Assembly (NCBI GenBank): GCA_024277375.1
Contig: JAJRVD010000025.1
Coordinates: 19,846 to 83,845 of the forward strand
Direction of reading: 5' to 3'
DNA length: 64,000 bases
Origin: Candidatus Omnitrophota bacterium
GTDB taxonomy: Bacteria; Omnitrophota; Gorgyraeia; Tantalellales; Tantalellaceae
In this document: positions 31,826-48,465 of the stretch, one piece after another
Layout of the letters: each line of letters starts with the position of its first letter
How positions within the stretch are numbered: the stretch's first letter is position 1
The notes under the pieces: model-generated
What the model was told of the DNA's origin: nothing
The model's database searches: none
The model's input: the letters and a program-made list of their open reading frames with translations, nothing else
Translations under genes and position numbers: made by a program

Positions 31826-31983
31826 TGTCATTCTGGCTGTGTCGTAATGTAAGGACTTGATTCATCAAGCCCGTTATGTCGGGTTCGCTAAGCTTGTCCC
31901 CGCGAAAGCGGGGATCGAACCCGATATAACATATTGTATACGGCCATTCGAAAAACAAATTGCGACACAGTCTGATCGCGAGG
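31826..31983 (+). repeat. MITE-like element, family A, copy 6, with a GC hairpin (TCCCCGCGAAAGCGGGGA) inserted in the core
   Basis: Arms conserved; the core centre is replaced or interrupted by a 21-bp GNRA-type hairpin; lies between lpxK and waaA. Confidence 0.75.
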
Positions 31984-31985
31984 GT

Positions 31986-33290
31986 TTATAAATACTCTTC
32001 AACTTTCTCTATCGTAACACTTACCGCTCCGGTATTTTCCTCTATAACTTTCCGCGCGCCTTCCGCCGCGCGGTCACGTTTTTCTGGATCATTCAAAAGT
32101 TCCTCTGTTAGATCCTTAAGGTGCCTTTTATCCTTTACCCGGAAGGCTGCGTTATGCTCCAGGAATATATCGGATACTTCGCGAAAATTAAACATATGCG
32201 GACCGAAAACAACTGCCTTACCCCATCTTGCCGCTTCAATCGGGTTCTGTCCTCCCTTTTTCACAAGACTTCCGCCAATAAAAACCACGGTAGCTATACC
32301 ATAAATATCCTTGAGATGACCTATCGTGTCGACGAGCAAAACATCGTAACCTGTGTCTTCAGCACTGCCTGATAAACAGCGACACTTTAGCCCCTCTTTT
32401 TCAACATGGATCTTTATGGCTTCGGCTCTCTCAATATGCCGTGGAGCTAAAACAAGTTTCAAATTCTTCCTGTCAGCTTTGAGGTCCTTATAGATGTCGA
32501 TGATCTCGTTCTCTTCGGGACAATGGGTGCTACCCGCGACAACGATCTCATCATTGGCATTAAAGCCCCACCGTTCCCTACCTGGTACCGCGTCGAAAGG
32601 AACGGGATCTTTTTCGTCAAATTTCATATTGCCGGTAACAAAAACTTTTTCTGACGAAGCGCCTAATTCCTGTATTCTTTCAGCATCCCGATCGGACTGC
32701 ATACAAAAACAACTAATACCCTTGAGAATACGCCTGGTTACAAACCTTATCTTCTTGTAATTCTCAAAGGACCCATCTGATATGCGACCATTAGCAATAA
32801 CAACCGGAACATCCTTCGAATACAATTCTTCCAGGAGATTAGGCCAGAGCTCCGTTTCTACCATCACATACAAACGAGGTTTCAAGAGACGTACCACACG
32901 AGCGGTTACCATCCTCATGTCTATCGGATAGTAAAATACGGCATCGACATTGCCGTTGGCAAGTTTTCGTATCATATTATTCCCGGTCTGTGTAGTTGTC
33001 GACACTATAACCGGAGTGTCTTTAAACTTACATTTGATGTCCGCGGCCAATTTTGCCGCCAAGGCCGCCTCCCCCACGCTCACCGCGTGTATCCAAACAG
33101 GATTGGAGAGTATCGTAACCTCTCTGGGCAAAAATCCAAGCTTTTGAAAAAAATCCCGGTGGGCTTTTCGCTTTACCAGAAGATACGGAATGTAAAAAAT
33201 GCTGAAAATTATAAAAAACAGATCGTATATTAATCTCATAGTAGCCTTGTCGGCGAATAGTCGTTGGTAAATAGTATTGGACCGGCTCAA
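31986..33290 (-). CDS. waaA: 3-deoxy-D-manno-octulosonic acid transferase (Kdo transferase)
   Basis: 434 aa; WaaA/KdtA family; N-terminal membrane anchor; alternative start at MRLIYDLFF (33239). Confidence 0.88.
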   Translation of the reverse strand: MSRSNTIYQRLFADKATMRLIYDLFFIIFSIFYIPYLLVKRKAHRDFFQKLGFLPREVTILSNPVWIHAVSVGEAALAAKLAADIKCKFKDTPVIVSTTTQTGNNMIRKLANGNVDAVFYYPIDMRMVTARVVRLLKPRLYVMVETELWPNLLEELYSKDVPVVIANGRISDGSFENYKKIRFVTRRILKGISCFCMQSDRDAERIQELGASSEKVFVTGNMKFDEKDPVPFDAVPGRERWGFNANDEIVVAGSTHCPEENEIIDIYKDLKADRKNLKLVLAPRHIERAEAIKIHVEKEGLKCRCLSGSAEDTGYDVLLVDTIGHLKDIYGIATVVFIGGSLVKKGGQNPIEAARWGKAVVFGPHMFNFREVSDIFLEHNAAFRVKDKRHLKDLTEELLNDPEKRDRAAEGARKVIEENTGAVSVTIEKVEEYL

Positions 33291-33317
33291 GACTATTCAC
33301 CATAAACCATTCACGCG

Positions 33318-34193
33318 CTACGCGCGTGGATGTGCTTTCGAGTATATCTCTTTTATACGTTTTGAACCGAGATGCGTATATATTTGTGTTGTCGATAAAT
33401 TTTTATGACCTAAAAGCTCCTGCACACTCCTGAGATCCGCGCCATTATTGAGCATATGGGTCGCGAATGAATGCCTGAGCGAATGCGGTGATATTTTTTG
33501 TTCTATCCCGCATTTAGTTATATATTTGTCAATAACTCGCCTTATGCTCCGATCAGTAAGGCGCGTGCCCCTCGCGTTAAGAAAAAGAGCTTTTACGGAA
33601 TCCTGCCCCTCGAGGCTTCTTTCTTTCAGATAATTCCGTAACGCGCTCCCGGCTTCCGATCCCAACAAGGTAAGCCGCTCTTTTTTTCCCTTACCTTTAA
33701 CTTTTGCCACTCCCGAGAGAAGATCCACATCCTGCTGATCTAGCTGAACCAATTCACTAACACGCATCCCCGTTGAATACAATATCTCCAGGATAGCCCT
33801 ATCTCGCAATCCAAGGATATTATCCGACAATGGCGAGGTTATAAACTTAAGCATCTTTTCGGTATCCAAAAATTCCGGCAAACGCCTATCCAGCTTTGGA
33901 GTAAAAATGCTATCCGCCGGATTTTGTGTTAAATATTTTTCCCTAAAAAGAAATCTAAAAAAAGAGCGTATCGCTCCCAGCTTTCTTACAACCGTACGTT
34001 TGGCGCAATTTCTCCCTTTAAGCTCCGCTAGGAAACGCCTGAGATCAAGGTGAGTTGTTTTTCTAGGATCTTTATCGTCCAAAAAATCAGCAAGCTCATT
34101 AAGGTCTGTCTTATAACACCGTAATGTATGCGCTGAATAGTTCTTCTCTATATCCAGATAAGAAACGAACTTCACAACGAAACGTTTCATCAT
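33318..34193 (-). CDS. tyrosine site-specific recombinase XerC/XerD
   Basis: 291 aa; phage-integrase catalytic domain with R...HxxR...Y (HSLRHSFATHML ... LGHKNLSTTQIYTH). Confidence 0.85.
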   Translation of the reverse strand: MMKRFVVKFVSYLDIEKNYSAHTLRCYKTDLNELADFLDDKDPRKTTHLDLRRFLAELKGRNCAKRTVVRKLGAIRSFFRFLFREKYLTQNPADSIFTPKLDRRLPEFLDTEKMLKFITSPLSDNILGLRDRAILEILYSTGMRVSELVQLDQQDVDLLSGVAKVKGKGKKERLTLLGSEAGSALRNYLKERSLEGQDSVKALFLNARGTRLTDRSIRRVIDKYITKCGIEQKISPHSLRHSFATHMLNNGADLRSVQELLGHKNLSTTQIYTHLGSKRIKEIYSKAHPRA

Positions 34194-36346
34194 TATTCAC
34201 CCTTCACGCCGCCATCACCATCTCCATTCTCTTTCTCGTCGGCAGCCGGAAGTGTTTTGGTAATAAACGTACATTTCGGATACTTCGTGCATCCATAGAA
34301 TGCGCCCCTTCGGGATCTTCGTTCTATAAGCTCACCATCACAGTCTTCGGTAGGACATTTAACTCCACTCGTTATCGATTTTGAGAACTTGCATTCAGGG
34401 AACGTTGAACAACTCATAAAACGTCCACGACGACCCCATTTTATCACAAGGGGCTTCCCGCACTCGTCACAAAACTCATCAGTCTCAATATCTTTGTGTT
34501 TGACCTTTTTTATGTTTTCTTGCGCCGCTTTAAGCATTTCCGAAAAGGGCCCATAAAAATCTCTCAATACGGCAACCTTGTCAATTTTCCCGTCTTCAAC
34601 ATCATCCAACTCATCCTCCATACCGGCCGTAAACGCGTCATCAACAATTTTCGGAAAATGCTCTACAAGTAATTTGTTTACCAACTCACCCAGTTCTGTC
34701 GGCTGCAAACTTTTCCCCAAACGCTTAACATAATTACGACGAATTATCGTTCTTATCGTAGGGGCGTATGTTGACGGTCTTCCTATCCCTTTTTCCTCAA
34801 GAATTTTAACGAGAGAAGCGTCCGTATAGCGTGGAGGCGGCTTAGTAAAATGCTGCCCCGGGATCAATTCCTCAAGATCGGTTTCTTCCAAAACTTCCAA
34901 CGGCGGCATCTCCGCCATATCCTCGCCTCTTTCTCCGTCATCAATATAAACACGAAGAAAACCGTCAAATTTGAGCTGCGCGCCACCGGCTTTAAACCTG
35001 TAGTCCCCCGCGTCAATACTGACGCTCAAAACAGAATAAAGCGCGTTTGTCATCTGGCTCGAAACAAATCTCTTCCATATAAGTTTGTAAAGCTTGATCT
35101 CGTCGTCATTAAGAAAAGGGGCGACATCGTCCGGATGACGAATGGGCAGTGTCGGCCTTATAGCTTCATGAGCTTCCTGGGCTCTCTTTTTTGATTTGTA
35201 TACCGGCGGCTTTTCCGGGCAATATTTGTCCCCGTACTTGTCCTTGATATACTGACGAACTTCCACTTGCGCGTCCTGAGAAATACGAACTGAATCTGTA
35301 CGCATGTATGTTATTAAACCTACGCTCCCCTCAGAACCCAGTTCAACCCCTTCATAAAGACTTTGCGCTATTCTCATGGAATTTGAAGCCGAAAAATTCA
35401 GTTTATTGAAAGCGTCCTGCTGCATAACAGAAGTGGTATATGGTGAACGCGGATAACTCTTTTTCTCTTTGCGGCTCACACTGCTCACTATAAATTTTTC
35501 TTTTTCTATCTCTTCGACTATTTTATTTACACTTTCCTCGTTTTGAATATGTATTTTTTCACCCTTGTGTTTTGCCAGCTTAGCTTCAAATGTAAGAGGC
35601 CCGTTATAACCCTCGGGGGGTGCTATTTTTTTCTTAAGACGCGCGACTAAACTCCAGTACTCCTCTTTTACGAAATTTTTTATATCCTCTTCCCTGTCTA
35701 CTATCAACCGAACAGCTATAGACTGCACTCTTCCGGCACTTAAGCCCCGTGTCACGTTTTTCCATAAAATGGGACTCAGTGAATACCCCACAATCCTGTC
35801 CATGATCCTTCTGGCCTGCTGGGCATTCACTTTCTCCATATCTAAAGTACGCGGATTTTCGAAAGCCTTTTTAACCGCTTTCGCCGTGATCTCATCGAAA
35901 CTTACTCTGTAAATTTCCGGATTTTTAGAATCGAGTTCATTTTTTAAATGCCAGCAAATAGCTTCCCCTTCTCTATCCGGGTCAGCCGCGAGGTATATTG
36001 CCTTTACAACTTTAGCTTCTTTCACCAGGCTGGTAAGATACTTTTTTCGCCCCTTCATAACCAGATATTCAGGCTCAAAATCCTTTTCAAAATCTATACC
36101 CATTCGGCCGGCGGGCAAGTCTATAATATGCCCCATGCTCGCGAGAACTTTGTATTCCCTACCCAGGATCTTATTTATAGTTTTTGATTTCGCCGGTGAT
36201 TCTACAATAACCAGATAGCCTGACCTTTTCTTTGGACTAGCCTTTCTCTTCGAAACGGCCTTTTTCTTAGCAGTGGTCTTTTTTACAGCTGGTTTTGCGG
36301 ATTTCTTTTTTGTATCCGATGTGGTTCCCTCTTTCTTAGTCGGCAT
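34193..36346 (-). CDS. topA: DNA topoisomerase I
   Basis: 717 aa; Lys-rich N-terminal tail; Toprim and topoisomerase IA core; C-terminal C4 zinc ribbons (CxxC pairs). Confidence 0.95.
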   Translation of the reverse strand: MPTKKEGTTSDTKKKSAKPAVKKTTAKKKAVSKRKASPKKRSGYLVIVESPAKSKTINKILGREYKVLASMGHIIDLPAGRMGIDFEKDFEPEYLVMKGRKKYLTSLVKEAKVVKAIYLAADPDREGEAICWHLKNELDSKNPEIYRVSFDEITAKAVKKAFENPRTLDMEKVNAQQARRIMDRIVGYSLSPILWKNVTRGLSAGRVQSIAVRLIVDREEDIKNFVKEEYWSLVARLKKKIAPPEGYNGPLTFEAKLAKHKGEKIHIQNEESVNKIVEEIEKEKFIVSSVSRKEKKSYPRSPYTTSVMQQDAFNKLNFSASNSMRIAQSLYEGVELGSEGSVGLITYMRTDSVRISQDAQVEVRQYIKDKYGDKYCPEKPPVYKSKKRAQEAHEAIRPTLPIRHPDDVAPFLNDDEIKLYKLIWKRFVSSQMTNALYSVLSVSIDAGDYRFKAGGAQLKFDGFLRVYIDDGERGEDMAEMPPLEVLEETDLEELIPGQHFTKPPPRYTDASLVKILEEKGIGRPSTYAPTIRTIIRRNYVKRLGKSLQPTELGELVNKLLVEHFPKIVDDAFTAGMEDELDDVEDGKIDKVAVLRDFYGPFSEMLKAAQENIKKVKHKDIETDEFCDECGKPLVIKWGRRGRFMSCSTFPECKFSKSITSGVKCPTEDCDGELIERRSRRGAFYGCTKYPKCTFITKTLPAADEKENGDGDGGVKGE

Positions 36347-37475
36347 TAAACACTCCCTTATTTGATCGTAAGTCCTTGCGAACGAAATTCTTACCTGCTT
36401 GTGCTTTCACTAACCCCTTTATTTCAAGTTTCATTAATATCTCCGATAACTTTCTGGGGTCAGTACTCGAACTTGCCGAAAGCTGGTCTATATGCAGTGG
36501 AACTTGTTCTTCCAGCATGCCCAGGACACCTCTTTCCTCTTCCCCAAGTCCATACATAACTAAAGATTCTTCCTTTGTTTTTACATCAATGTTTTGCGGT
36601 GCGGATATTTCAAATTCTTCCAGAATATCACCAACATGTAACACCAGTTTGGCACCGTTCTGTATAAGACGATTAGTACCCCTACTTGTAAGTGAATCCG
36701 CCCTTCCGGGAAAAGCAAAAACCTCCCTACCCTGGTCAAGCGCGAAATCAGCTGTTATCAAAGCGCCGCTTCTTTCGGCAGCCTCAACAACTACTACGCC
36801 CCTGGCCATGCCTGAAATTATCCTATTCCTTCTGGGGAAAGACGATTTACTCGGCATAGTATCGGAAGAATACTCAGTAATAACCGCGCCGTTGTAAGCT
36901 ATCGTCGAGACAAGTTTTTCGGATCCTTTGGGATAAATATGTCTGAACCCGCTTCCCATAACGGCAATTGTGCGCCCTCCCGCTTTTATTGCCCCTTTAT
37001 GCGCGGCCTGATCTATGCCTTTGGCCATACCGCTGATAACGGTTACACCCTTTTTAGCAAGATCAAATGCCAACCTTTCCGCCATCTTAAGCCCATACAA
37101 AGAACATCTTCGAGGCCCCACTATCGCCACTGCCTCAGCGTCGACCGGCCTCAGACTTCCCTTGCAAAAAAGCACGGGCGGCGGATCATAAATATTTTTT
37201 AAAGATTCCGGATAAGCTCTATCAAAACAACATATCGGATGGATGTCTTCCGAATCCATATAAGTCATTTCCTCCGCGTAAACTCGCGACTTTCTTACAT
37301 CCGACATCTGCTCTATCCCTCCGTAACGCAATCCTGTTAGCTCTGCCAGGCGAGCGGGAGCCAGCGAAAAGATCTCTTCGGTATTCTGAGTGTTTTTCAA
37401 TAACGTCATTATTCTTTTGGGACCAAGCCCTTCCAATAAATTCAAAGCCACTATATCCCGACATGTTTTATTCAT
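36336..37475 (-). CDS. dprA: DNA processing protein DprA (Smf)
   Basis: 379 aa; DprA Rossmann-like domain (GMAKGIDQAAH ... GALITA); canonical dprA-topA adjacency. Confidence 0.9.
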   Translation of the reverse strand: MNKTCRDIVALNLLEGLGPKRIMTLLKNTQNTEEIFSLAPARLAELTGLRYGGIEQMSDVRKSRVYAEEMTYMDSEDIHPICCFDRAYPESLKNIYDPPPVLFCKGSLRPVDAEAVAIVGPRRCSLYGLKMAERLAFDLAKKGVTVISGMAKGIDQAAHKGAIKAGGRTIAVMGSGFRHIYPKGSEKLVSTIAYNGAVITEYSSDTMPSKSSFPRRNRIISGMARGVVVVEAAERSGALITADFALDQGREVFAFPGRADSLTSRGTNRLIQNGAKLVLHVGDILEEFEISAPQNIDVKTKEESLVMYGLGEEERGVLGMLEEQVPLHIDQLSASSSTDPRKLSEILMKLEIKGLVKAQAGKNFVRKDLRSNKGVFNAD

Positions 37476-37530
37476 ACATCACCCACTCCTTCACTTTAAG
37501 CCACAGAGCGCTTTATGCCTTAACACCCCT

Positions 37531-37745
37531 GTCATTCAGACTGTGTCATAATGTAGGGGCTTGATCCATCAAGCCCGTTATATCGGGTTCGATGAATCGA
37601 ACCCCTACAATATACTGTATGCGGCCACCCGCAAAACGAATTACGACACAGCCTCATTGCAAGGCCTGCAAGATAGAAGCAATCTCTAGATGATATCCTT
37701 CGACTCGGCCTCGCATGTCTCGACTTCGCTCAGGATAAATTCGAA
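37531..37745 (+). repeat. MITE-like element, family A, copy 7 (composite with type-2 tail)
   Basis: Core plus arms at 37531-37665, then AGCAATCTCTAGATGATATCCTTCGACTCGGCCTCGC...CGCTCAGGATAA; lies between dprA and the aroK-HD-GYP gene. Confidence 0.85.
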
Positions 37746-37787
37746 ATACAATTTATGTTCGCTTCGCTCCATAAAATGTTTCTTCAT

Positions 37788-39302
37788 TTAAAAGACTCCT
37801 TTTCTGACCATATCAAGAAATATATCCGTAAGCCGGGGGTCAATTTTGTGACCTTTTTCATTTTCCATTATCGCTACCGCCTCATCGATAGAGAACTTTT
37901 CGCGATATGGCCTGTCTGCAGTTAACGCCTCATATATATCGGCTATGCTTAATATCCGCGCTTCCAGTGGGATCCGCCATCCCTTTCGTCCTTTAGGATA
38001 ACCCGAACCATCAAAATTTTCGTGGTGATTTACAATGATAGGTATGGTCTTACGCAGAAAATAGATCAGCCGTGCCATCTCGGCACCCCAGTAAGAATGC
38101 ATCTTCATCTGTCGAAACTCATTTTTTGTCAGCTGTTCTTTTTTGAACAAGATACTCTCTTCTACACCCAACTTCCCTATATCATGCAGAAGCGCTGCCA
38201 CTTTAAGCCTTTCTGTCTTCACTTTACTCAGTTTGATCTTTTTCGCCAGACTGGCGGCAAAGGTCTTAACCCTAGCAGAATGTTCAGCCACCCATGGCTC
38301 ACTTCTCATGCCGGCATCGAACAGTATACCCATCATTTCAAGATGCGCCGCATGCAGCTCTTTCGATGAAAGAGTATGACTTTTCGCGCTACTATCTACC
38401 GGATCCTCCTTTTCTCTTCCGACAAACATATAAAACACGGTTTTCTCTTCTTTTATGGGCACCACCAACCAGGAGATATATTTCCCGGAGACACCGGACG
38501 CGACAACAGGCATATCAAATTTAAAAAGCCTGTTTTTTCTTTTCATCTCTTTATTTATTTTCCACGCGTCGCCTCGCGCAGATTCGGGTATTATACCATT
38601 GATCCAGGACCGATTCATGATATCGTTTTCAAGAAGAGAGAACGCGGTTAAATATTTTTTGTTCACAAAAACAACCTGACCTTCGTTATCCACGAGCATT
38701 ACAGGGTATTTTATGTTCTGCAGCAATCTTTCAGAAAAATAACCCCAAAGAACGGTATTCTCTTCTAACCCCCGGCCTCTACCCTGTCGTCCTTCAAGGC
38801 GGTTACGCATAATATTCTTCACGCGATCTAAAACGATCGTAAGATCGAGTCCCGTAGTATCTATGTGATAGTTCGCTTTCTTGTAATATGGCCGACGATA
38901 TTCCAGAAGTTCTCTTATCATTTTCCGAGGATCATCAACTTCAAGAAGCGGCCTATGCGCATATTCTTTCGTTCTATCGTATATGGCGTCAACATCAGCC
39001 CATAGACATATAACAACACCAGTCCTACGAAGATCCTTCATATTTTGCCGATTCAAAACTACTCCACCGCCGGTGTCGATCACCTGATCCAATTTTGCCG
39101 AAACCTCTTTTACAACTTCTCGCTCGACCGTTCTGAAATATTCTTCACCTTCATCTCTGAAAATATCAGAAATAAGTTTGTCCTCCCGTATCTCTATGAG
39201 ATTGTCTACACTGACGTATTCCTTGCCCGTATCGTGAGCAAGCGCTTTGGCGATCTCGGTTTTCCCGGATCCCATAAAGCCTACAAGTACAATATTTTTC
39301 AT
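37788..39302 (-). CDS. shikimate kinase fused to PAS-like sensor and HD-GYP phosphodiesterase domain
   Basis: 504 aa; residues 1-175 are a complete AroK (GFMGSGKT Walker A, conserved shikimate-binding pattern); middle ~150 aa are PAS-like; the C-terminus carries HDIGK ... HHENFDGSGYP (HD-GYP signature). Confidence 0.75.
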   Translation of the reverse strand: MKNIVLVGFMGSGKTEIAKALAHDTGKEYVSVDNLIEIREDKLISDIFRDEGEEYFRTVEREVVKEVSAKLDQVIDTGGGVVLNRQNMKDLRRTGVVICLWADVDAIYDRTKEYAHRPLLEVDDPRKMIRELLEYRRPYYKKANYHIDTTGLDLTIVLDRVKNIMRNRLEGRQGRGRGLEENTVLWGYFSERLLQNIKYPVMLVDNEGQVVFVNKKYLTAFSLLENDIMNRSWINGIIPESARGDAWKINKEMKRKNRLFKFDMPVVASGVSGKYISWLVVPIKEEKTVFYMFVGREKEDPVDSSAKSHTLSSKELHAAHLEMMGILFDAGMRSEPWVAEHSARVKTFAASLAKKIKLSKVKTERLKVAALLHDIGKLGVEESILFKKEQLTKNEFRQMKMHSYWGAEMARLIYFLRKTIPIIVNHHENFDGSGYPKGRKGWRIPLEARILSIADIYEALTADRPYREKFSIDEAVAIMENEKGHKIDPRLTDIFLDMVRKGVF

Positions 39303-39331
39303 ATGCTCCCTTTTACATACTTTTTAGGCTT

Positions 39332-39504
39332 GTGCAAAACGCTGTTTTTTTTCAATCAGCCTGTGTCATGATGTAGGGGCTTGATTCATCAAGCCCGTTA
39401 TATCGGGTTCGATGAATCGAACCCCTACAATATGTTGTATGCGGCCATCCGCAAAACAAATTACGGTACAGCCTGAATGACGAGAATTCCATTTTGCACA
39501 AGTC
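39332..39504 (+). repeat. MITE-like element, family A, copy 8 (flanked by the 15-bp direct repeat TTACATACTTTTTAG)
   Basis: Inverted ends CTTGTGCAAAACG / CATTTTGCACAAG; identical 15-bp direct repeats at 39313-39327 and 39505-39519; lies between the aroK-HD-GYP gene and aroC. Confidence 0.88.
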
Positions 39505-40632
39505 TTACATACTTTTTAGTTGCTCCAAATATCCCTCGTAATTCCGGCGGATCTCTTTCATGGAGTCTCCGCCAAACTTCTCTAAAAATACGGCGCCAAT
39601 TTCTATAGCCACAGCCGCTTCGGCGATAACACCGCAAGCCGGAACCGCGGTTACATCAGAACGCTCCGTAGCGGCTTCCGCTTCCTTCTTCGTATCGATA
39701 TCAACAGTTTTTAACGGACTTGCCAAAGTCGCTATGGGCTTCATAAAAGCCTTTACTACAACCGGAGCTCCATTCGTAACTCCGCCCTCTATTCCTCCGG
39801 CATTGTTAGATTCTCGCGTGAACATTCTCCCCAAACTATCATATCCTATCGGATCATGCGTGAGCGAGCCCTTTCGCTACGCGCATTCTATTCCCTTTCC
39901 TATCGAAACCGCCTTTACCGCGGGTATTGCCATAACGGCACGTGCTATCCGACCATCCAACCTTCTGTCCCACTGCGCGTATGTCCCCAATCCCGGAGGG
40001 ATTTCAAGTACCGCGATCTCGATGGTACCACCCAAAGTATCACCGCAAATTTTCGCGTTATCAATGATCTTACGCATACTTTTCGCGGCATTCTTGTCCG
40101 CGCATCTAAGATCTGAAACTTCAGCGATCTTTTTTATTTCATCAAAGAAAAGTCCGTCGGTTTCCGCCTCGACGTTTCCTATCGCGGTAACATGGCTCAT
40201 TACATCAATACCAAATTCTTTAAATATCAATTTCGCGACAGCACCAACAGCGACTTTTATCGCTGTCTCTCGTGCCGAGGCTCTCTCCAGAACATCCCGG
40301 GCGTCTCCAAGAGCATATTTCTGCACACCGGCCAGATCGGCATGTCCGGGACGAGGACATTTTACATCAGGAAGTTTATCGATCTTATGATCCTTATTGC
40401 GTATCAAAAGCCCCACAGGACTGCCTATAGTAAACCCGCCTCGAATGCCGGTCACTACTTCGACCTTATCCCTCTCGATCTTCATCCGGCCGCCTCTACC
40501 ATACCCTACCATACGCCGGGTGAGCTCTTTGTTGATGAATTCTTCATCCATTTTGAGACCCGCGGGCACGCCGTCCAAAACCGCCATTAATCCCTTGCCG
40601 TGGGATTCTCCCGCAGTCATATACCTTAGCAT
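39505..40632 (-). pseudogene. aroC: chorismate synthase (aroC) interrupted by a single in-frame TAG at 39877-39879
   Basis: ORFs 39877..40632 and 39505..39834 share a frame. Read-through gives ...SIGKGIECA-TAG-RKGSLTHDPIGYDSLGRMFTRESNNAGGIEGG, collinear with the AroC consensus (GxGFxxAxxxGSxxxDxI...RSNxAGGIxGG). Total 376 codons. Confidence 0.8.
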
Positions 40633-40717
40633 GGCAAACTCCTTTTTTTCGTATTCCGGATATCGTCAAATCAATGGGGATCAGACCTGCCCCAAAGTCT
40701 TTGCCACCTCTTCTCTG

Positions 40718-40790
40718 TCATCGTGTCGTGTAGGGGTTCGATTCATCGAACCCAATATAACGGGCTTGATAAATCAAGCCCCTACATTAT
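40718..40790 (-). repeat. MITE-like element, family A, copy 9 (minimal core-only copy, reverse orientation)
   Basis: GTAGGGGTTCGATTCATCGAACCCAATATAACGGGCTTGATAAATCAAGCCCCTAC with short arms; lies between aroC and pilD. Confidence 0.75.
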
Positions 40791-40828
40791 GACGAAGCTA
40801 TCACTATAAACACCACTCTCCTACGTAA

Positions 40829-41593
40829 CTAAATTAAAAAATAACCTAAGATCGCATCGCCGTACAATAAACTTATTATCGCCCCTAACGCCAGATAGGG
40901 GCCGTACGCGATAACGTCTTCCCTATGCTTAAGCTTCGCGAAAATACCTACACCGGAACCCATAACCGGCGCGAGAAAAAAAGTAAGAAGTATTAATTTC
41001 CATCCGAGGAACGCTCCAAGCATGGCCATCAGTTTCATATCTCCACCGCCTAATGCCTCTTTTTTGAACAAAACTTCCCCTAAAAGAGCCAGGAGAAACA
41101 TACTGCCGAATCCGGTTACCACCCCCAGTGCGGAATTAATAAACGCCCCCAGCGTTGTCGCGGAACCGTCTAATCTCAACACCGTCATAAGAATAAGCCC
41201 GACGGCTATCCCCTGCAGGCTCAAACAATCGGGTATTTCCTGAAATTCCAGATCAATGAACACAATAACTATCAGCACACATGTTAATGTCCAATAGACA
41301 AAAAACGCGCTGCCCAACGGGTAATAGCGCAAAATGAGCATCGCGCTTAAAGCAGTTACCAGCTCAACCACAAAATACCTTTTAGATATCTTTTCCCCAC
41401 AATGACGGCACCTGCCCCTGAGCGATAAAAAACTTATAAACGGCACATTATCGAACCATCCGATAGTCTTCCGGCATTTCGGACAATAAGAACGAGGTCC
41501 GACTATAGACTCATTCCTCGGTATGCGGTAAATACATACGTTAAGAAAACTCCCTATGATAGCTCCAAAAATAAAAACGATCAAATATTCCAT
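40829..41593 (-). CDS. pilD: type IV prepilin peptidase (A24 family)
   Basis: 254 aa; N-terminal CxxC zinc-finger pairs (CPKC ... CRHC) and the A24 aspartyl peptidase membrane domain. Confidence 0.85.
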   Translation of the reverse strand: MEYLIVFIFGAIIGSFLNVCIYRIPRNESIVGPRSYCPKCRKTIGWFDNVPFISFLSLRGRCRHCGEKISKRYFVVELVTALSAMLILRYYPLGSAFFVYWTLTCVLIVIVFIDLEFQEIPDCLSLQGIAVGLILMTVLRLDGSATTLGAFINSALGVVTGFGSMFLLALLGEVLFKKEALGGGDMKLMAMLGAFLGWKLILLTFFLAPVMGSGVGIFAKLKHREDVIAYGPYLALGAIISLLYGDAILGYFLI

Positions 41594-41610
41594 AGTTTAG
41601 TGCTCCATGT

Positions 41611-41640
41611 TCCGTAGGAGCGGCCTCCGGCCGCGAACAA
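41611..41640 (+). repeat. type-4 repeat copy
   Basis: CCGTAGGAGCGGCCTCCGGCCGCGAACAA upstream of pilD. Confidence 0.7.
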
Positions 41641-41684
41641 CACGTCGTACATCGCATAGCGTACATCATACAGCGTGTTCTCCT

Positions 41685-41885
41685 GTCATTCAGACTGTAT
41701 CATAATGTAGGGGCTTGATTTATCAAGCCCGTTATATCGGGTTCGATGAATCGAACCCCTACAATATGTTGTATGCGACCATCCGTAAAACGAATTACGA
41801 CACATCCTTAACCGAGGACATCGTTCCCGAGTAAGTCCCGGGACCAGAGGTTCTCGGGAAAGGGCCGAGTCAAAGGATCTCTTAT
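41685..41885 (+). repeat. MITE-like element, family A, copy 10 (composite with type-2 tail)
   Basis: Core plus arms at 41685-41806, then a tail ending GGGCCGAGTCAAAGGATCTC; lies between pilD and aroE. Confidence 0.82.
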
Positions 41886-42784
41886 TTGTCTCTCTTCAAC
41901 TCCGCCAAAACCGCTTCTTTCATAACTTTTTTCGTCTCTTCAAGAGGCTTCCCCGTCCATATATTAAAAGCAATGGCCGCCTGGTTGATCAGCATACCCA
42001 ATCCATTAACCGCTGTGAGCCCTTGTTCTTTCGCGGTTTTTAGAAGCCTCGTTTCCCGGGCATAGACAAGATCATATACTGTCATCCCCTCTCTTAAACA
42101 CTCAAGAGGAACAGCCGAACGATCATCCCCCTCTTTCGTTCCGATCGGGGTCGCGTTTACAACAAGTTCGCATTAGGCCATTCTTCCGGAAATATCTTTT
42201 GCCTCAACAGGGACGCACGCGTCCGGCCCAAACTGCTTCTTGCAAACAGTTGCCAATTGACAAAGTAGATCCTCTTGCGAATCATAAAGAAATATTTCTT
42301 CAGGTGCCGCCTCACCGATAGAAGCAAGATACATGCACAGAGCTCGCCCCGCCCCGCCGGATCCAAACAGAAAAACCTTTTTACCTTTGGGGTCAAATCC
42401 CGCGTCTTCTTGCAATGATTGATAAAACCCTTCCACGTCAGTATTATACCCCTTAACCTTTTCACCATCACTCCTGACGGTATTGACAGCACCCAGCAAT
42501 TCCGCTTCGCTATCTATAGTACACTTCTGTCCGGATTTCAGCATATCAAACACGGCTATCTTATAAGGTACCGTAACATTAATACCACCAATATTGTTGT
42601 CCTTGATAAGACTCAAGAAATCCTTATCTATATGTTTTGCTCTGGTGTCAAAATCTCTATCGAAAAGTTTATATTCGGTTGGTATGCCAAAATGGGCAAG
42701 CGCCGCATTATGCATGACGGGAGACAAAGAATAGCTTATATTCTTCCCAAGAAGACCGTATACTTTAGCGTTGACGTTCGACAT
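41882..42784 (-). pseudogene. aroE: shikimate dehydrogenase (aroE) interrupted by a single in-frame TAA at 42173-42175
   Basis: ORFs 42173..42784 (N-terminal substrate domain; Rossmann GSGGAGRA) and 41882..42085 are in the same frame. Read-through gives ...DISGRMA-TAA-CELVVNATPIGTKEG...MTVYDLVY..., matching the AroE consensus DLVVNATxxGM. Confidence 0.8.
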
Positions 42785-42834
42785 AGAATGCTCTCCTCTG
42801 ATCTGTCATTGCGAACGAACTAGCGTGAGCGGAA

Positions 42835-43030
42835 CAATCTCTGCAAAAATAATGTTTTATGGGGATTGCCGCGTCATCATTCGCTTTGCAAATGAACTCC
42901 TCGCATTCAGGCTGTGTCACAAGTCACTTTATGAAAGCTACATACAACATATTGCAGGGATTCATTTATCAAACCCGATATAACGGGCTTGATAAATCAA
43001 GCCCCTACATTGCGACACAGCATGAATGAC
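42835..43030 (-). repeat. MITE-like element, family A, copy 11 (degenerate, reverse orientation)
   Basis: One core half is retained (GATATAACGGGCTTGATAAATCAAGCCCCTAC); the other half is degenerate; the arms carry the CAAGTCACTTT...ACATACAACAT subfamily sequence; lies between aroE and leuA. Confidence 0.65.
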
Positions 43031-43037
43031 AATACAT

Positions 43038-44588
43038 CTATTTCTTGCTTGTTTTCTTTTTCGCCTTAGTGGCTTTCGCCGAAAGGCGATTAACGGCATT
43101 TATGTATGCTCTAACACTTGCCTCTATAACATCGGTACTGGAACCTCTGCCCATTACGATCTTTTTGCCGAAAGACACCTTCACGCTGGCTTCTCCAAGC
43201 GCGTCTTTGCCGCTGGTAACAGCGTTTATTCTGTAATCTACAAGTTTGCCCTTTTGGCCGATAGCTTTATCGATGGTCTTGAAACAAGCGTCAACGGGAC
43301 CATCACCCGTCGCGGTGGCTGAAAGTAGTTTTTTGTTTTTTTTAAGATCTACAGTGGCTAAAGGATCTACCTTATTACAACTAGTCACCTGAAAATTAAC
43401 AAGTTTATACTCTTCGGTAACCGTAGCGAGGTCATCTTCCACGATAGTAGCGAGATCTTCATCGTATATTTCAGCTTTTTTGTCAGCAAGGGTCTTGAAT
43501 CGCGCGAAGGCCTGGTCGAGTTCTTTATCAGAAAGAAAATATCCGAGTTTTTTCAACCGGGCTGATACCGCGTGACGTCCTGAAAGTTTTCCGAGGACTA
43601 TCTTTGAGCCCGAAAACCCGACATCCTGAGGCCTTATGATCTCATATGTAACGCGTTTTTTCATCACACCGTCTTGGTGTATCCCGGATTCATGGCTGAA
43701 AGCGTTCTCGCCGACGATAGCTTTGTTGGGCTGGGGGTTTATCCCGGTTAACTTGGCGACCAATTTACTTGTCTTATATAATTCTTTCGTAATGATCCCG
43801 GTCGTTATTCCCTTGAATATATCCTTACGCATCTTGACGGCCATAATAACTTCTTCAAGAGCGGCGTTACCCGCTCTTTCTCCCAGGCCGTTAATGGTAC
43901 ACTCTATCTGACGCGCGCCGTTCAAAACCGCTTCTAAAGAATTGCTTACCCCAAGCCCCAGGTCATTATGACAATGTACGCTTATTACCGCCTTACCGAT
44001 ATTGCTCACATTTTCATTGAGATATCGTATAAGGCTCCCAAATTCGCCGGGCACGGCATAACCTACGGTATCCGGAATATTGACCGTCCGCGCTCCGGCG
44101 GCGATAACCGCCTCCACGACTTCCGCGAGAAAATCGGGTTCCGTTCGCGACGCGTCCTCGGGGGAGAATTCAATATCCGAAATTTTCTTACGGGCATATT
44201 TTACCGCGTCCACTGAAGCCTTAAGTATCTCGTCTTTAGCTTTATTAAGCTTATATTTTCGATGTATACTCGAAGTTGCCAGAAAAACATGTATCCTGGC
44301 CCTTGCGGCTTTCTTAAGAGCCAGATAAGCGTCATCTATATCTCTTTTGGTCGCCCGGGCCAAACCACATATTATCGGTTTTTTGACGTGCTTTGAGACA
44401 GTCTTTACCGCGTCAAGATCTCCCGGACTGGTACGCGGAAACCCCGCTTCGATAACGTCAACACCCAGAGTTTCAAGCTGAAGCGCGATCTTTAATTTCT
44501 CATTCGCGTTCAGACTCGCTCCGGGTGTTTGTTCGCCATCCCTTAAAGTCGTATCAAAAATGATAACCTTGTCTTTCTTCATGATCAA
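43038..44588 (-). CDS. leuA: 2-isopropylmalate synthase
   Basis: 516 aa; HMGL-like TIM barrel (LRDGEQ) plus C-terminal LeuA dimerisation/regulatory domain. Confidence 0.95.
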   Translation of the reverse strand: MIMKKDKVIIFDTTLRDGEQTPGASLNANEKLKIALQLETLGVDVIEAGFPRTSPGDLDAVKTVSKHVKKPIICGLARATKRDIDDAYLALKKAARARIHVFLATSSIHRKYKLNKAKDEILKASVDAVKYARKKISDIEFSPEDASRTEPDFLAEVVEAVIAAGARTVNIPDTVGYAVPGEFGSLIRYLNENVSNIGKAVISVHCHNDLGLGVSNSLEAVLNGARQIECTINGLGERAGNAALEEVIMAVKMRKDIFKGITTGIITKELYKTSKLVAKLTGINPQPNKAIVGENAFSHESGIHQDGVMKKRVTYEIIRPQDVGFSGSKIVLGKLSGRHAVSARLKKLGYFLSDKELDQAFARFKTLADKKAEIYDEDLATIVEDDLATVTEEYKLVNFQVTSCNKVDPLATVDLKKNKKLLSATATGDGPVDACFKTIDKAIGQKGKLVDYRINAVTSGKDALGEASVKVSFGKKIVMGRGSSTDVIEASVRAYINAVNRLSAKATKAKKKTSKK

Positions 44589-44649
44589 TCCTTTTTAACG
44601 TACATCTCATAGAGTACATCGCACAGCGTGTTTCTACCATCTACCCTGT

Positions 44650-44815
44650 TGTCTCAAGTCACTTTGCAAAGAACAACATACAACATAACATACAACATAC
44701 TGTAGGAGTTTGATTTATCGAACCCGATATATCGGGCTCGATAAATCAAGCCCCTACATTGCAACACAGACTGATCGCGAGGAGCACAGCAACGAATCAA
44801 TCTCTACGATATGTG
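44650..44815 (-). repeat. MITE-like element, family A, copy 12 (subfamily variant, reverse orientation)
   Basis: Core variant GTAGGAGTTTGATTTATCGAACCCGATATATCGGGCTCGATAAATCAAGCCCCTAC; shares the CAAGTCACTTT / ACATACAACAT arm with copy 11; right extension GAGCACAGCAACGAATCAATCTCTACGATA; lies between leuA and ilvC. Confidence 0.75.
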
Positions 44816-44857
44816 TACCCCGAAAAATCGGAAATAAGTCCAGCTATAACTGACAAC

Positions 44858-45847
44858 TTAGTCCATCCAAGGCATCATACCGCGCAGCTCTTCGCCGACT
44901 ATCTCTATCTGATGTTTCTTTTCCTCTGATGTTATCTTATTATAATTCGGACGCCCCGCTTCATTCTCTTTGATCCATTCCTCAGCAAATTTACCGGACT
45001 GCACTTCACCAAGGATCTTTTTCATCTCATCACGTGTTGCCTGATTGATGACCCTTTTACCTCTTGTGATGTCGCCATATTCGGCCGTATCCGAAACCCT
45101 GGATCTCATACCTGAGATACCATTTCTATAAATGAGGTCTGTTATGAGCTTTAACTCATGCAGACACTCAAAATACGCGATCTCCGGCTGATATCCAGCT
45201 TCAACCAAAGTATCAAAACCGGCTTTTATAAGTTCCGAAGCACCCCCGCAAAGTACTGCCTGTTCCCCGAAAAGGTCCGTTTCGGTTTCCTCGGTAAAAG
45301 TTGTCTCAATAACACCGGCTTTTGTTCCGCCGATCGCCTTGGCATAAGCCAGAGCCTTGTCCTTCGCTTTACCGCTGGCATCCTGATAGATCGCGATAAG
45401 AGCCGGAACACCTTTACCCTGTTCGTACATCTCTCTTACCAAAGCACCGGGCCCTTTAGGAGCGACCATTATAACATCCACATTTTCAGGCGGCACGATC
45501 TGCTTGAAATGTATGTTGAACCCGTGCGAAAAGGTAAGCGTATTACCTTCGAGGAGATTAGCCTCGATAGCGTTCTTATAAACCGAAGCCTGAACATGGT
45601 CCTGGGTCAATATCTGGATTATATCGGCCTGCTTTGCCGCCTCGGAAGCTGAAATAACATCAAAACCATCTTTCTTTGCCTGTTCATAGTTAGGGGTGCC
45701 TTCCAGTTCACTGACCAGAACATCAATACCACTGTCTCTCAGGTTAAGCGCCTGCCCACGGCCCTGTATACCGTAGCCGATTATCGCTACCTTTGAATCC
45801 TTGATCACATCAAGCTCCGCGTCTTTATCATAGTACATCTTCGCCAT
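44858..45847 (-). CDS. ilvC: ketol-acid reductoisomerase
   Basis: 329 aa; class I KARI ([17 protein letters not shown]). Confidence 0.95.
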
Positions 45848-45903
45848 CTCACTTCCTCCTTTTTACTAGCGCTCATGCTTCATGCACAATACACTTTTTC
45901 CCC

Positions 45904-45985
45904 GTCCATTCAGACTGTATCATAATGTAGGGGCTTGATTCATCAAGCCCGTTATATCGGGTTCGATAAATCGAACCCCTACATT
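45904..45985 (+). repeat. MITE-like element, family A, copy 13 (right arm truncated)
   Basis: Left arm plus full core; ends 3 nt before the ilvH TAG stop; lies between ilvC and ilvH. Confidence 0.8.
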
Positions 45986-45988
45986 ACG

Positions 45989-46474
45989 CTATTCACTATC
46001 CGACCGCAAAGCTATCTTTCCGGTCCTCACGATCTCCAAAATTCCATAGGGACGTACCAGCTCCACAAGAGCTTTTATCACATGGTCATCCCCTGACTCT
46101 TCAACAGTAAGAGACTTCTTACCGACATCCACTATCTCCGCACCGGTAGTGTCAACAACTTTTACGATCTTTTCCCTGACCTTAGTATCCGGCGCCTTGA
46201 CCTTTATCAGTATAAGCTCTCGCCCGATATGCTCTCCCTCGGTAAGGTCCTGCACGCTAATGACATCTATAAGTTTATTAAGCTGTTTCTTTACCTGTTC
46301 CAATATCTTCTCATCCGCCGCCACGACTATTGTCATCCTTGATGTATCAGGATCTTCCGTTTCACCTACCGCTAACGACGTAATGTTAAACCCCCGTGCG
46401 GAAAAAAGTCCGGCAACCCTCGCCAAAACACCAAACTTATTTTCTACTAAAACTGATAGTACAAATTTAGACAT
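45989..46474 (-). CDS. ilvH: acetolactate synthase small (regulatory) subunit
   Basis: 161 aa; ACT domain plus C-terminal ALS_ss_C; TAG stop abuts a truncated MITE. Confidence 0.9.
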   Translation of the reverse strand: MSKFVLSVLVENKFGVLARVAGLFSARGFNITSLAVGETEDPDTSRMTIVVAADEKILEQVKKQLNKLIDVISVQDLTEGEHIGRELILIKVKAPDTKVREKIVKVVDTTGAEIVDVGKKSLTVEESGDDHVIKALVELVRPYGILEIVRTGKIALRSDSE

Positions 46475-46502
46475 TATTACTCCTTAGCTTTCAGTCTTAG
46501 AC

Positions 46503-46675
46503 TCATGCAAAACGCTGTTTTTTCAATCAGACCGTATCATAATGTAGGGGCTTGATTCATCAAGCCCGTTATATCGGGTTCGATAAATCGAACCCCTACA
46601 ATATCTTGTATGCGGCCATCCGCATAACAAATTACAACACAGGCCGAATGACGAAAGTTCCGTTTTGCAAAACCC
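46503..46675 (+). repeat. MITE-like element, family A, copy 14 (full length)
   Basis: Outer ends ATGCAAAACGCTG / CCGTTTTGCAAAA; flanking CAGTCTT / AGCTTTCAG direct-repeat motifs on both sides; lies between ilvH and ilvB. Confidence 0.88.
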
Positions 46676-46738
46676 TATTCAGTCTTCAGCTTTCAGCCTT
46701 CAGCTGCTGATAGCTGAAAACTGATAGCTGATAGCTCA

Positions 46739-48433: not shown

Positions 48434-48465
48434 ATAACTCCTCTCTGCACTATGTGTACCCGATT

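Follow-up and report, generated by a model that had tools for sequence, protein, structure and literature searches.

The window, by which we mean the whole 64-kb stretch of Omnitrophota DNA analyzed here, carries on its minus strand an uninterrupted open reading frame (ORF; 37788..39302) that runs for 504 amino acids from an ATG start to a TAA stop and encodes a shikimate kinase (SK), a linker, a PAS domain and an HD-GYP domain. The SK domain (residues 1-172, 38787..39302) is assigned from Pfam SKI, PDB and Foldseek matches, and is the positional orthologue of standalone aroK. It contains the Walker A motif or P-loop, GFMGSGKT (residues 8-15, 39258..39281), recognized by its conservation in alignments, and has S31-V32-D33 at the canonical D-x-D site (39204..39212), as placed by alignment to PDB kinases. 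The ATG of Met165 (38808..38810) marks the fusion point, which we located by a three-frame comparison of the junction with five relatives in which the genes are split (L001, L003, L006, L018 and L019). Downstream of the kinase, a flexible linker of low model confidence (residues 173-180, 38763..38786; part of RQGRGRGL) originates in the N-terminal tail that the downstream gene encodes. The PAS domain follows (residues 181-298, 38409..38762), supported by Pfam PAS, AlphaFold2 secondary structure and a Foldseek match to 9rc0. The HD-GYP domain (residues ~313-500, 37803..38366) is supported by Pfam HD_5, PDB matches and invariant residues, and holds both HDIGK (residues 373-377, 38172..38186) and the GYP motif (HHExxDGxGYP), here HHENFDGSGYP (residues 426-436, 37995..38027). 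All of these features are on the minus strand.

The neighboring genes lie on the same strand. The chorismate synthase gene aroC (39505..40632) lies immediately upstream and shares an operon-like block with the fused gene; it is followed by the prepilin peptidase gene pilD (40829..41593) and, beyond it, the shikimate dehydrogenase gene aroE (41882..42784); the next gene downstream is dprA (36336..37475). Both the dprA position and that of pilD between aroE and aroC are the same in all related loci. The preliminary description was right about the shikimate-pathway setting, the minus strand and the interposed pilD, but it placed aroC and aroE downstream of the fused gene, whereas they are upstream. 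A palindromic intergenic repeat of ~150 nt is inserted on each side of the fused gene, with cores on the plus strand at 39376..39429 (between aroC and the fused gene) and 37556..37609 (between the fused gene and dprA). Two conserved genes are interrupted by in-frame nonsense codons, aroC by TAG (39877..39879, minus strand) and aroE by TAA (42173..42175, minus strand), and a third, tig, also has one (TAG, 10346..10348); the preliminary description mentions neither the aroC nor the aroE stop. We considered stop-codon reassignment and rejected it, because the stops are of two kinds and genes in the window end normally at all three codons, TAA, TAG and TGA. No tRNA genes were found in the window, no Rfam family matched it, and a promoter and terminator scan around the fused gene gave nothing above shuffle expectation.

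All three domains are recovered as significant Pfam matches: SKI (PF01202) over residues 10-151 (E 1.3e-37, 129.8 bits against a cutoff of 22.1), PAS (PF00989) over residues 191-278 (E 1.4e-5, 25.5 bits against 22.6) and HD_5 (PF13487) over residues 335-491 (E 4.2e-39, 134.5 bits against 27.2). The AlphaFold2 model of the 504-residue protein is confident (mean pLDDT 92.8, pTM 0.70), and pLDDT falls below 50 over three or more residues solely at the linker, residues 172-180. The AroK, PAS and HD-GYP architecture given in the preliminary description is thus borne out, and the three motifs that it quoted (GFMGSGKT, HDIGK and HHENFDGSGYP) are all found in the ORF. However, because the linker is short and of low confidence and the pTM is only 0.70, the model predicts no confident interface between the domains.

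The kinase domain adopts an NMP-kinase-like fold with pLDDT above 90 over most of its length. It superimposes on the crystal structures 4y0a, 1u8a and 1l4u with target-normalized TM scores of 0.85-0.91 and rmsd of 1.5-2.0 Å (Foldseek), and PDB shikimate kinases match it by sequence, down to E 7e-27. In the shikimate kinase MtSK, Asp32 contributes the Mg2+ site, Asp34 the shikimate/Mg2+ site, and shikimate binding involves Ile45, Phe49, Arg58, Gly79-81 and Arg136, with Arg117 in the LID (PMC2593004). Across the fused proteins, the Walker A motif, D33 (MtSK Asp34, the second Asp of D-x-D), I44, F48, R57, G78-80, R110, R117 and R136 are invariant. The P-loop residues G11, G13, K14 and T15 are the same in 13 of 13 fused proteins and are kept in 116-119 of the 120 closest standalone kinases, among which the entries that carry a source name are all labelled Omnitrophota or Omnitrophica.

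One signature difference stands out at the D-x-D site. The first Asp is replaced by serine (S31) in all 13 fused proteins and equally in 111 of the 120 standalone kinases, whereas the PDB kinases in the displayed alignments have Asp at that position. Of the AroK that the preliminary description called complete, the residues that bind ATP and shikimate are conserved, the one exception being the Mg2+-site Asp32, which is Ser and unusual in this respect among solved shikimate kinases. From these alignments the Asp32-to-Ser change appears to be a phylum-wide trait and the sole deviation of the kinase domain, and the domain itself is, judged by its sequence, an orthologue of standalone aroK that keeps its shikimate- and ATP-binding residues. 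Consistent with this, its identity is 60-63% to standalone kinases, the named ones being from Omnitrophota, and 43-56% to the SK domains of other fused proteins. NCBIfam shikimate-kinase equivalog models all score under their own cutoffs, the best being PRK13947 (169.5 bits against 204). An SK-like homoserine kinase of the Desulfovibrio type (NF040667) was weighed as another identity for the domain. Its model reaches 85.1 bits, with a cutoff of 197, and so scores far under the shikimate-kinase models; for this reason, and because the shikimate-binding residues are conserved, we rejected it. A second SK was not detected within the 64-kb window.

Of the two classes of c-di-GMP hydrolase, the HD-GYP enzymes are the more poorly understood, and for most of them the input signal is not known. 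In our protein the PAS domain is modeled at pLDDT of ~90 or higher, with an N-cap helix (residues 180-196) and a core of five strands flanked by helices, and its Foldseek match is the PAS/HD-GYP structure of DvhD (9rc0). The C-terminal domain matches the HD-GYP structures 4mcw, 4r8z, 9rbz and 9rc0. Residues H341, H373, D374, K377, H402, H426, H427, E428 and D431 are invariant in the fused set, as are G432, G434, Y435, P436 and D455. The metal-ligand set (H341, H373-D374, H402, H426-H427 and D455) is intact and aligns with that of PmGH, and E335 aligns with the PmGH glutamate upstream of the first metal-site histidine, which we take to be a ligand of the third metal. By sequence, the top two PDB matches are the cGAMP-specific 5z7c (E 1.5e-37) and the c-di-GMP enzyme 4mcw (E 3.8e-35), so these matches do not discriminate between the HD-GYP substrates. 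The window contains no GGDEF motif, and its EAL-like matches are trivial.

The combination of shikimate kinase and PAS-HD-GYP in one protein is real and rare. It is carried by ~13 protein clusters at 90% identity (at 50% identity, 4 of 1.84 billion representatives), all of them within the same Omnitrophota block of genes. An hmmsearch with the SK profile (best 150 of the 1.84 billion representatives, plus the first 120 homologues) recovered no SK joined to HD-GYP outside the Omnitrophota set. The fused proteins of different lineages are only 40-49% identical to each other. Two of them, P0009 and P0012, are each found on 6 contigs from several sources, which puts the existence of this kind of fusion outside the window lineage beyond question. 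We found no paper linking shikimate kinase with HD-GYP in such a fusion. An architecture already common and annotated would have told against the preliminary description; we find instead ~13 clusters confined to one block and no published account.

In every related Omnitrophota locus that we examined, the gene order is ilvBN-ilvC-leuA-aroE-pilD-aroC-aroK-[PAS-HD-GYP]-dprA-topA-xerC-waaA-lpxK. Five unfused lineages (L001/L002, L003, L006/L007, L018 and L019) have an SKI gene of 168-177 amino acids directly upstream of a PAS-HD-GYP gene of ~340 amino acids, with the two in different frames by the three-frame junction comparison. The gap between them is +32 nt in L001/L002, -23 in L003, -17 in L006/L007, -20 in L018 and +1 in L019. 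In the fused lineages (L004, L016, L017 and L008) the block is identical, with a single gene replacing the two, and in P0046/L008 the SK is joined straight to HD-GYP without a PAS domain. Assemblies with a fused gene include GCA_015231405.1, GCA_035403965.1 and the 746-kb ENA contig ERZ27257507:k141_110358. For 22 further unfused PAS-HD-GYP clusters, the longest contig is equal in size to that of a standalone SK cluster; some of these contigs are 1.7-2.3 kb. Overlapping junctions are common across the whole block. In several loci this holds for the junction with the downstream dprA as well, yet no dprA fusion occurs among the 120 best PAS-HD-GYP homologues.

Two trees bear on the origin of the fusion in the window. 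Its PAS-HD-GYP part is placed in an unfused clade (99 of 100 bootstraps), and a tree of LeuA, AroC and TopA groups the window with three split-gene genomes (83% bootstrap). Because of this latter grouping, the window fusion is an event separate from the other fusions, and the trees indicate that fusion or fission has happened separately two or more times among Omnitrophota lineages. The route would be short. With the 3' end of aroK abutting or overlapping the PAS-HD-GYP start codon in another frame, as in the split relatives, a one-base frame change just upstream of the old start codon (now Met165) would have removed the aroK stop, and translation would run on from aroK into the complete downstream PAS-HD-GYP protein. 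The ATG of Met165 occupies the site of the downstream start codon in the split relatives and is here in frame with aroK. The Shine-Dalgarno (SD)-like purine stretch before that start reads aaaggg or aaggagg in L003, L006 and L018, and gaagaat in the window.

Several searches were made for a second copy of the window lineage. Protein-pattern scanning of the GTDB representative genomes turned up nothing closer than distant shikimate kinases from Bacillota/Clostridiales, and the same kind of scan of JGI metagenome contigs gave matches only at 34-44% identity. The exact junction-spanning 29-mer had no match in the JGI contigs, and an exact-protein look-up for the fused protein returned no record. 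The fused protein of the window forms a singleton cluster.

We favor, with a probability of about 0.6, the interpretation that the ORF is an in-frame fusion of a housekeeping aroK with the adjacent PAS-HD-GYP gene, and that its product is most likely bifunctional. In this model, the N-terminal domain would phosphorylate shikimate as the enzyme of pathway step 5, and the C-terminal module would hydrolyze a cyclic dinucleotide, most likely c-di-GMP, under its own PAS sensor. The short flexible linker would tether the two halves, which would guarantee 1:1 co-production and proximity. The analysis establishes which domains are present, the orthology to standalone aroK, the conserved catalytic and binding residues, the adjacency across the phylum, the independence of the fusion events and how rare the combination is outside this block, whereas both activities, the HD-GYP substrate and any cross-talk between the halves are what we infer here. 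Counting against this interpretation are the serine at the Mg2+ site, the equivalog scores below cutoff and, for the window, a singleton fusion that hinges on one base in an assembly with three nonsense codons in conserved genes. That the fusion persists across lineages sharing just 40-49% identity, and that fusion or fission has recurred, may also point to something beyond passive tethering.

A rival reading is that the two halves form a coupled module, in which shikimate/ATP occupancy of the kinase or LID closure modulates c-di-GMP hydrolysis, or in which the PAS/c-di-GMP state controls the kinase. In the split relatives, the same partnership would exist as a non-covalent complex formed through translational coupling. 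Such coupling is suggested by the adjacency of aroK and PAS-HD-GYP in five of five unfused lineages, plus the 22 contig-size matches, and by start/stop overlaps of 17-23 nt in three of the five. The two or more separate fusion or fission events, the retention of the fusion in divergent lineages, the direct SK-HD-GYP joining in P0046/L008 and the complete lack of dprA fusions among the 120 homologues point in the same direction. However, all 14 genes of the block are frozen in place, functionally unrelated ones such as pilD, dprA, topA and xerC among them, so adjacency alone is weak evidence of coupling; overlapping junctions are likewise common throughout the block, and no confident inter-domain interface is predicted across the short linker. 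The preliminary description had read from the fusion a link between aromatic flux and second-messenger signaling. That link is not established by genes that were already adjacent in a frozen block and that a one-base change could join through a low-confidence linker of 9 residues. We consider it unlikely that this regulatory coupling operates, and only tentatively propose that SK and PAS-HD-GYP are a conserved functional pair in Omnitrophota, translationally coupled when split and fused at least twice independently, with either shikimate or ATP in the kinase gating c-di-GMP turnover or the PAS/c-di-GMP signal gating entry into the lower shikimate pathway. If true, the pair would provide a direct link between aromatic-precursor flux and a second messenger, of a kind that we did not find described for any bacterium.

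A different concern applies to the window itself, namely that the real genome has two genes, and that a single-base indel error in the assembly or consensus upstream of the Met165 ATG merges them. The nesting of the window lineage among split-gene genomes fits an error of this kind. When one base is added before the ATG, aroK ends in ...KNIxA*, with the TAA inside ATGCGTAA, which is a typical overlap arrangement. The cluster is a singleton for which no second assembly was found, and the same assembly has the nonsense codons in aroC, aroE and tig noted above. However, these other anomalies are substitutions, not indels, and no split or frameshifted gene is evident in the ORF map. The weakened SD-like stretch (gaagaat) would suit a gene in which internal initiation is no longer required, although this argument is weak because L001 has a stretch that is just as poor. 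Fusions of this kind are also real elsewhere, as seen for P0009 and P0012. On balance, an artefact in this assembly is an unlikely explanation for the ORF.

The remaining alternative, that the SK-like domain is no longer catalytic and instead acts as an input domain of the phosphodiesterase by binding shikimate or a nucleotide, has a precedent in BzdR, in which an SK fold was recruited as an effector-binding domain (PMC3602430), and could draw on the serine at the Mg2+ site and the sub-cutoff equivalog scores, but it is very improbable: the same serine is found in 111 of 120 standalone kinases that, at the examined loci, sit in the aroK slot and must supply the step, every other ATP- and shikimate-binding residue is invariant, PRK08154, the BzdR-type model, reaches only 72.4 of the 204 bits that its cutoff requires, and the fused kinase shows no sign of the loss of enzymatic activity that was essential for the BzdR SK domain to become regulatory (PMC3602430). 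The suggestion in the preliminary description that the kinase fold acts purely as a ligand sensor is accordingly not supported, given a positional orthologue of aroK with its binding residues kept and no other SK within the window.

Returning to the bifunctional fusion, what it would add is a biosynthetic kinase as the covalent partner of an HD-GYP domain in some lineages, and as its invariable, often overlapping upstream neighbor in the rest. It also carries a caution for Rosetta-stone-type reasoning: overlapping stop and start codons make such a fusion a one-base event, so that functional coupling should not be deduced from a fusion alone. In annotation, the name ‘bifunctional shikimate kinase / HD-GYP phosphodiesterase’ is preferable to ‘HD domain-containing protein’, because under the latter label the aroK step appears to be missing from pathway reconstructions of such uncultured bacteria.

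Overlaying the fused protein on known systems shows what is shared and what is new. Standalone AroK enzymes (4y0a, 1kag and 1l4u/2iyq) have the same fold, P-loop, shikimate-binding Asp, Arg57/58, GGG, LID Arg117 and Arg136, and the standalone Omnitrophota aroK sits in the same genomic slot after aroC. Relative to these enzymes, the fused protein adds a covalent signaling module of 330 residues, and the N-terminal tail of the downstream protein takes the place of the last ~5-7 residues of AroK. It differs from the solved kinases in having Ser for the first Asp of D-x-D, as do its closest standalone relatives. In the other half, PmGH (4mcw), PA4781 (4r8z), V-cGAP3 (5z7c) and DvhD (9rc0/9rbz) share the HD-GYP fold, the metal ligands and the GYP motif. 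DvhD, described as a c-di-GMP-binding regulatory protein (PMC13090378, PMC10990149), further resembles the fused protein in having PAS directly N-terminal to HD-GYP. Compared to the known PAS-HD-GYP proteins, ours has an extra metabolic kinase at its N terminus.

Two kinds of fusion involving the SK fold are instructive. BzdR pairs an HTH with a C-terminal SK-like domain that binds benzoyl-CoA and has lost kinase activity (PMC3602430). It is thus also an SK fold joined to a regulatory or signaling partner, but in our protein the SK domain is N-terminal, retains its catalytic and shikimate-binding residues, and scores far below the cutoff of PRK08154. The AroK-AroB proteins (PRK13951 and PRK14021) and the eukaryotic pentafunctional AROM likewise fuse shikimate kinase to the product of a neighboring gene. 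There, however, the partner is another enzyme of the shikimate pathway, whereas here it is a second-messenger phosphodiesterase with no known pathway role. Closest of all are the split aroK and PAS-HD-GYP pairs. That of Ca. Makaraimicrobium thalassicum (P0129 plus P0014) is orthologous to the fused protein, with ~60% identity in the SK and ~52% in PAS-HD-GYP, and such pairs occupy the same slot in the same block as the fused gene, but as two polypeptides.

The fused gene (37788..39302, minus strand) is a single unbroken ORF of 504 codons, in which Pfam places an SKI domain at residues 10-151 (E 1.3e-37), a PAS domain at residues 191-278 (25.5 bits, barely over the gathering score of 22.6) and an HD_5 domain of the HD-GYP family at residues 335-491 (E 4.2e-39). 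The top NCBIfam models are shikimate kinases, with PRK13947 first at 169.5 bits and none reaching its strict equivalog cutoff; NosR, an HD-GYP response-regulator model, is likewise matched. Among solved structures, 17 shikimate kinase entries match residues 1-176 (top 4y0a, E 7e-27), and the C-terminal two-thirds have hits to the HD-GYP enzymes V-cGAP3 (5z7c, E 1.5e-37), PmGH (4mcw, E 3.8e-35) and PA4781 (4r8z). An AlphaFold2 model made from an alignment of 106 sequences has a mean pLDDT of 92.8 and a pTM of 0.70, with residues 172-180 as the one stretch where pLDDT falls below 50. In Foldseek comparisons its N-terminal domain fits shikimate kinase crystal structures with target-normalised TM scores of 0.85-0.91 and rmsd of 1.5-2.0 Å, and its C-terminal part superposes on HD-GYP structures, among them the PAS/HD-GYP protein DvhD (9rc0). 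Because these lines of evidence agree, the preliminary description of a shikimate kinase followed by PAS-like and HD-GYP regions was correct. The best-supported reading is of a bifunctional protein derived from joined neighbours, in which a predicted shikimate kinase is flexibly tethered to a PAS-controlled HD-GYP phosphodiesterase.

A word-indexed search of 5.8 billion proteins returned three groups: the window's protein itself (P0001), a singleton cluster sourced from NCBI; 11 further clusters with the full-length SKI-PAS-HD-GYP architecture (P0002-P0012), 40-49% identical to it; and about 45 clusters of PAS-HD-GYP proteins of ~340 aa that lack the kinase domain (42-52%). Many clusters carry no source label; where labels are given, they read Omnitrophota, Omnitrophica or Candidatus Makaraimicrobium. 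In five of five lineages with separate genes, an SKI gene of 168-177 aa lies directly upstream of the PAS-HD-GYP gene in a different frame, with intergenic gaps of +32 nt (P0014, loci L001/L002), -23 nt (P0022, L003), -17 nt (P0023, L006/L007), -20 nt (P0048, L018) and +1 nt (P0058, L019). Split and fused loci (the latter P0009/L004, P0011/L016, P0012/L017 and P0046/L008) share the gene order ilvB-ilvN-ilvC-leuA-aroE-pilD-aroC-aroK-[PAS-HD-GYP]-dprA-topA-xerC-waaA-lpxK, and the window's minus strand has exactly this order from ilvB to lpxK. A search with the kinase domain only found standalone shikimate kinases of ~170 aa at 50-65% identity, all labelled ones from Omnitrophota. For 22 of them the longest contig is equal in size to that of an unfused PAS-HD-GYP cluster; some of these contigs are just 1.7-2.3 kb, so that adjacency of the two genes is forced. 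From the neighbourhoods and this search together, the fused gene is aroK joined to its constant downstream neighbour. The 14-gene block (window ~31900..48500; L001-L008, L016-L019) keeps its order at LeuA+AroC+TopA identities of merely 60-74%; its genes serve amino-acid biosynthesis, pilin processing, DNA metabolism and LPS, and overlaps occur at many of its junctions.

All three domains are well known, but their combination is rare and undescribed, and among the sequences searched it is confined to this Omnitrophota gene block. When the fused-protein profile was run without a word index against 1.84 billion representatives, just four (P0005, P0001, P0011 and P0012) covered the whole profile, and an SK-domain HMM, applied to the 150 top-scoring representatives and the first 120 homologues, found the kinase domain solely in the Omnitrophota set. 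One variant in the same block, P0046 (L008), lacks the PAS domain, its kinase running straight into HD-GYP. A full-text literature search found no paper on the shikimate kinase-HD-GYP combination, and the source annotations name the proteins only in general terms, as 'shikimate kinase', 'HD domain-containing protein' or 'putative nucleotidyltransferase with HDIG domain'. Thus the architecture is not already common and annotated, and its annotation should be corrected to keep the aroK step from being counted as absent.

The junction suggests how the genes were joined. The split aroK products end in ...ERIKGILNGAEKRD (L003) and ...NKIKGILNCEKNI (L006), each followed by a stop, and in a different frame these final codons contain the downstream start codon. 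In the window, aroK homology extends to ...DRVKNI and is followed by an ATG (Met165, 38808..38810). The residues after Met165, RNRLEGRQGRGRGLEENTVLWGYF..., are the counterpart of the downstream protein's N-terminal tail and first helix (P0022 reads MAQKREIKRTKRAKDTLLWDFF there), and neither of the other two frames contains anything homologous at the junction, just stops. With one base added ahead of the ATG, aroK would again end in ...KNIxA and a stop, the TAA lying within ATGCGTAA. This comparison of frames indicates that the fusion is a one-base frame change, which drops the last few AroK residues and keeps the downstream protein entire. The low-confidence linker at residues 172-180 is the former N-terminal tail of that protein.

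The window's fusion is an event of its own. By neighbour-joining on the PAS-HD-GYP portion, the window's protein falls within an unfused clade, and in 99 of 100 bootstraps it groups with at least five unfused proteins to the exclusion of the main fused group (P0002-P0010), whose own monophyly has low support (22%). The kinase domain shares 60-63% identity with standalone aroK products, against just 43-56% with the other fused kinase domains. As an independent species-tree proxy, LeuA+AroC+TopA (1535 ungapped columns) places the window with split L001, L003 and L006 (83% bootstrap), apart from fused L004, L016, L017 and L008. Because the three comparisons agree, there have been at least two changes between the fused and the split state; the deepest protein-tree branches (P0046, P0012 and P0011) are all fused, so the older changes could be fusions or fissions.

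Could the kinase and PAS-HD-GYP parts be interacting partners in a coupled module? Several features would fit such a pair: their adjacency is constant, the gene ends often overlap, the state changed repeatedly, the fusion has long been kept across lineages just 40-49% identical to each other, a PAS-less form exists and none of the 120 best homologues is fused to dprA. However, the entire block is frozen, unrelated genes included, overlapping junctions are common all through it, fusion costs a single base and no confident inter-domain interface is predicted. On these grounds we regard coupling as unlikely, and the link between aromatic flux and second messenger proposed earlier is no more than a possibility.

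An assembly indel at the window's junction seems similarly improbable to us. The window's fused protein is a singleton with no second copy found in GTDB representative genomes, JGI metagenome contigs or an exact-protein look-up, and the same assembly has three in-frame nonsense codons in conserved genes. On the other hand, fusion in other lineages is independent of the window, P0009 and P0012 each being found on six contigs from several sources, and the Shine-Dalgarno-like purine run before the downstream start in L003, L006 and L018 is weaker in the window, a mild argument at best for a genuine fusion. The nonsense codons, all on the minus strand with homology on both sides in the same frame, are a TAG in aroC (39877..39879), a TAA in aroE (42173..42175) and a TAG in the trigger factor gene (10346..10348). 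Orthologues have Tyr/Ser/Ala/Gly at the aroC site and Glu/Lys/Asn/Asp/Val at the aroE site; as L006, the nearest relative, carries Tyr and Glu there, both stops are explained by single-base nonsense changes. TAA, TAG and TGA are all ordinary terminators in the window, which rules out codon reassignment. The three stops reflect either genuine pseudogenisation of recent date, with two of the three falling in shikimate-pathway genes beside the fused aroK, or errors in the consensus. A further in-frame TAA (53959..53961, minus strand) separates ORFs 53959..54702 (247 aa) and 49012..53844 (1610 aa), with flanking open stretches of 253 and 1648 codons in the same frame; the two ORFs may be the pieces of a fourth interrupted gene for a giant protein, or just neighbouring genes.

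The window also holds at least 12 copies of a ~150-nt palindromic intergenic repeat; they lie in many of the gaps of an operon block that is otherwise compact, including those on both sides of the fused gene. The 54-nt core, GGGGCTTGATTCATCAAGCCCGTTATATCGGGTTCGATGAATCGAACCCCTACA, forms two 9-bp hairpins and is flanked by the inverted repeats TCAGACTGTGTC ... GACACAGCCTGA and TGCAAAA ... TTTTGCA. Cores occur at 7641-7694, 9638-9691, 11791-11844, 14883-14936, 21251-21304, 37556-37609, 39376-39429, 40729-40782, 41710-41763, 45930-45983, 46547-46600 and 48736-48789, with 0-3 mismatches (chance expectation, 0 matches). Absent from all 19 related loci and matching no Rfam family, the repeat resembles a MITE- or REP-like expansion specific to this lineage.

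The kinase domain is most likely the organism's working shikimate kinase, judging from orthology and residue conservation. Compared with a published residue list (PMC2593004), the P-loop (G11, G13, K14, T15), D33 (Asp34 of the reference kinase MtSK, shikimate/Mg2+), I44, F48, R57 (MtSK Arg58), G78-G80, R117 of the LID and R136 are invariant in the fused set; MtSK Thr17 is not conserved, and the window has E16. The sole systematic deviation is S31 in place of MtSK Asp32, the Mg2+-site first Asp of the D-x-D motif (window residues 31-33). Every solved kinase with an alignment shown has Asp here, and Ser is found in 111 of the 120 closest standalone kinases, in 13 of 13 fused ones and in the standalone aroK of L001 (7435-7968) and L003 (7505-8023). 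Its presence in standalone kinases points to a phylum-level trait of the pathway enzyme, not decay after fusion. No second shikimate kinase is detectable within the 64-kb window. A kinase fold serving only as a ligand sensor is known from BzdR, whose shikimate kinase domain had to lose its enzymatic activity before it could take on a regulatory role (PMC3602430); such a reading is unlikely and unsupported here, since the other ATP- and shikimate-binding residues are kept and S31 is common to standalone pathway kinases.

The main value of the fusion is a cheap, testable hypothesis on an input to HD-GYP signalling, along with the corrected annotation. AlphaFold2 models the PAS domain with a canonical fold, the domain shows no recognisable cofactor motif, and the 64-kb window contains no GGDEF motif. 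In the HD-GYP part, H341, H373-D374, K377, H402, H426-H427-E428, D431, G432, G434-Y435-P436 and D455 do not vary in the fused set and line up with PmGH's metal ligands and GYP motif, so that by default an active phosphodiesterase would be expected. Its two best solved relatives differ in substrate, one being a 3'3'-cGAMP-specific enzyme and the other a c-di-GMP enzyme.
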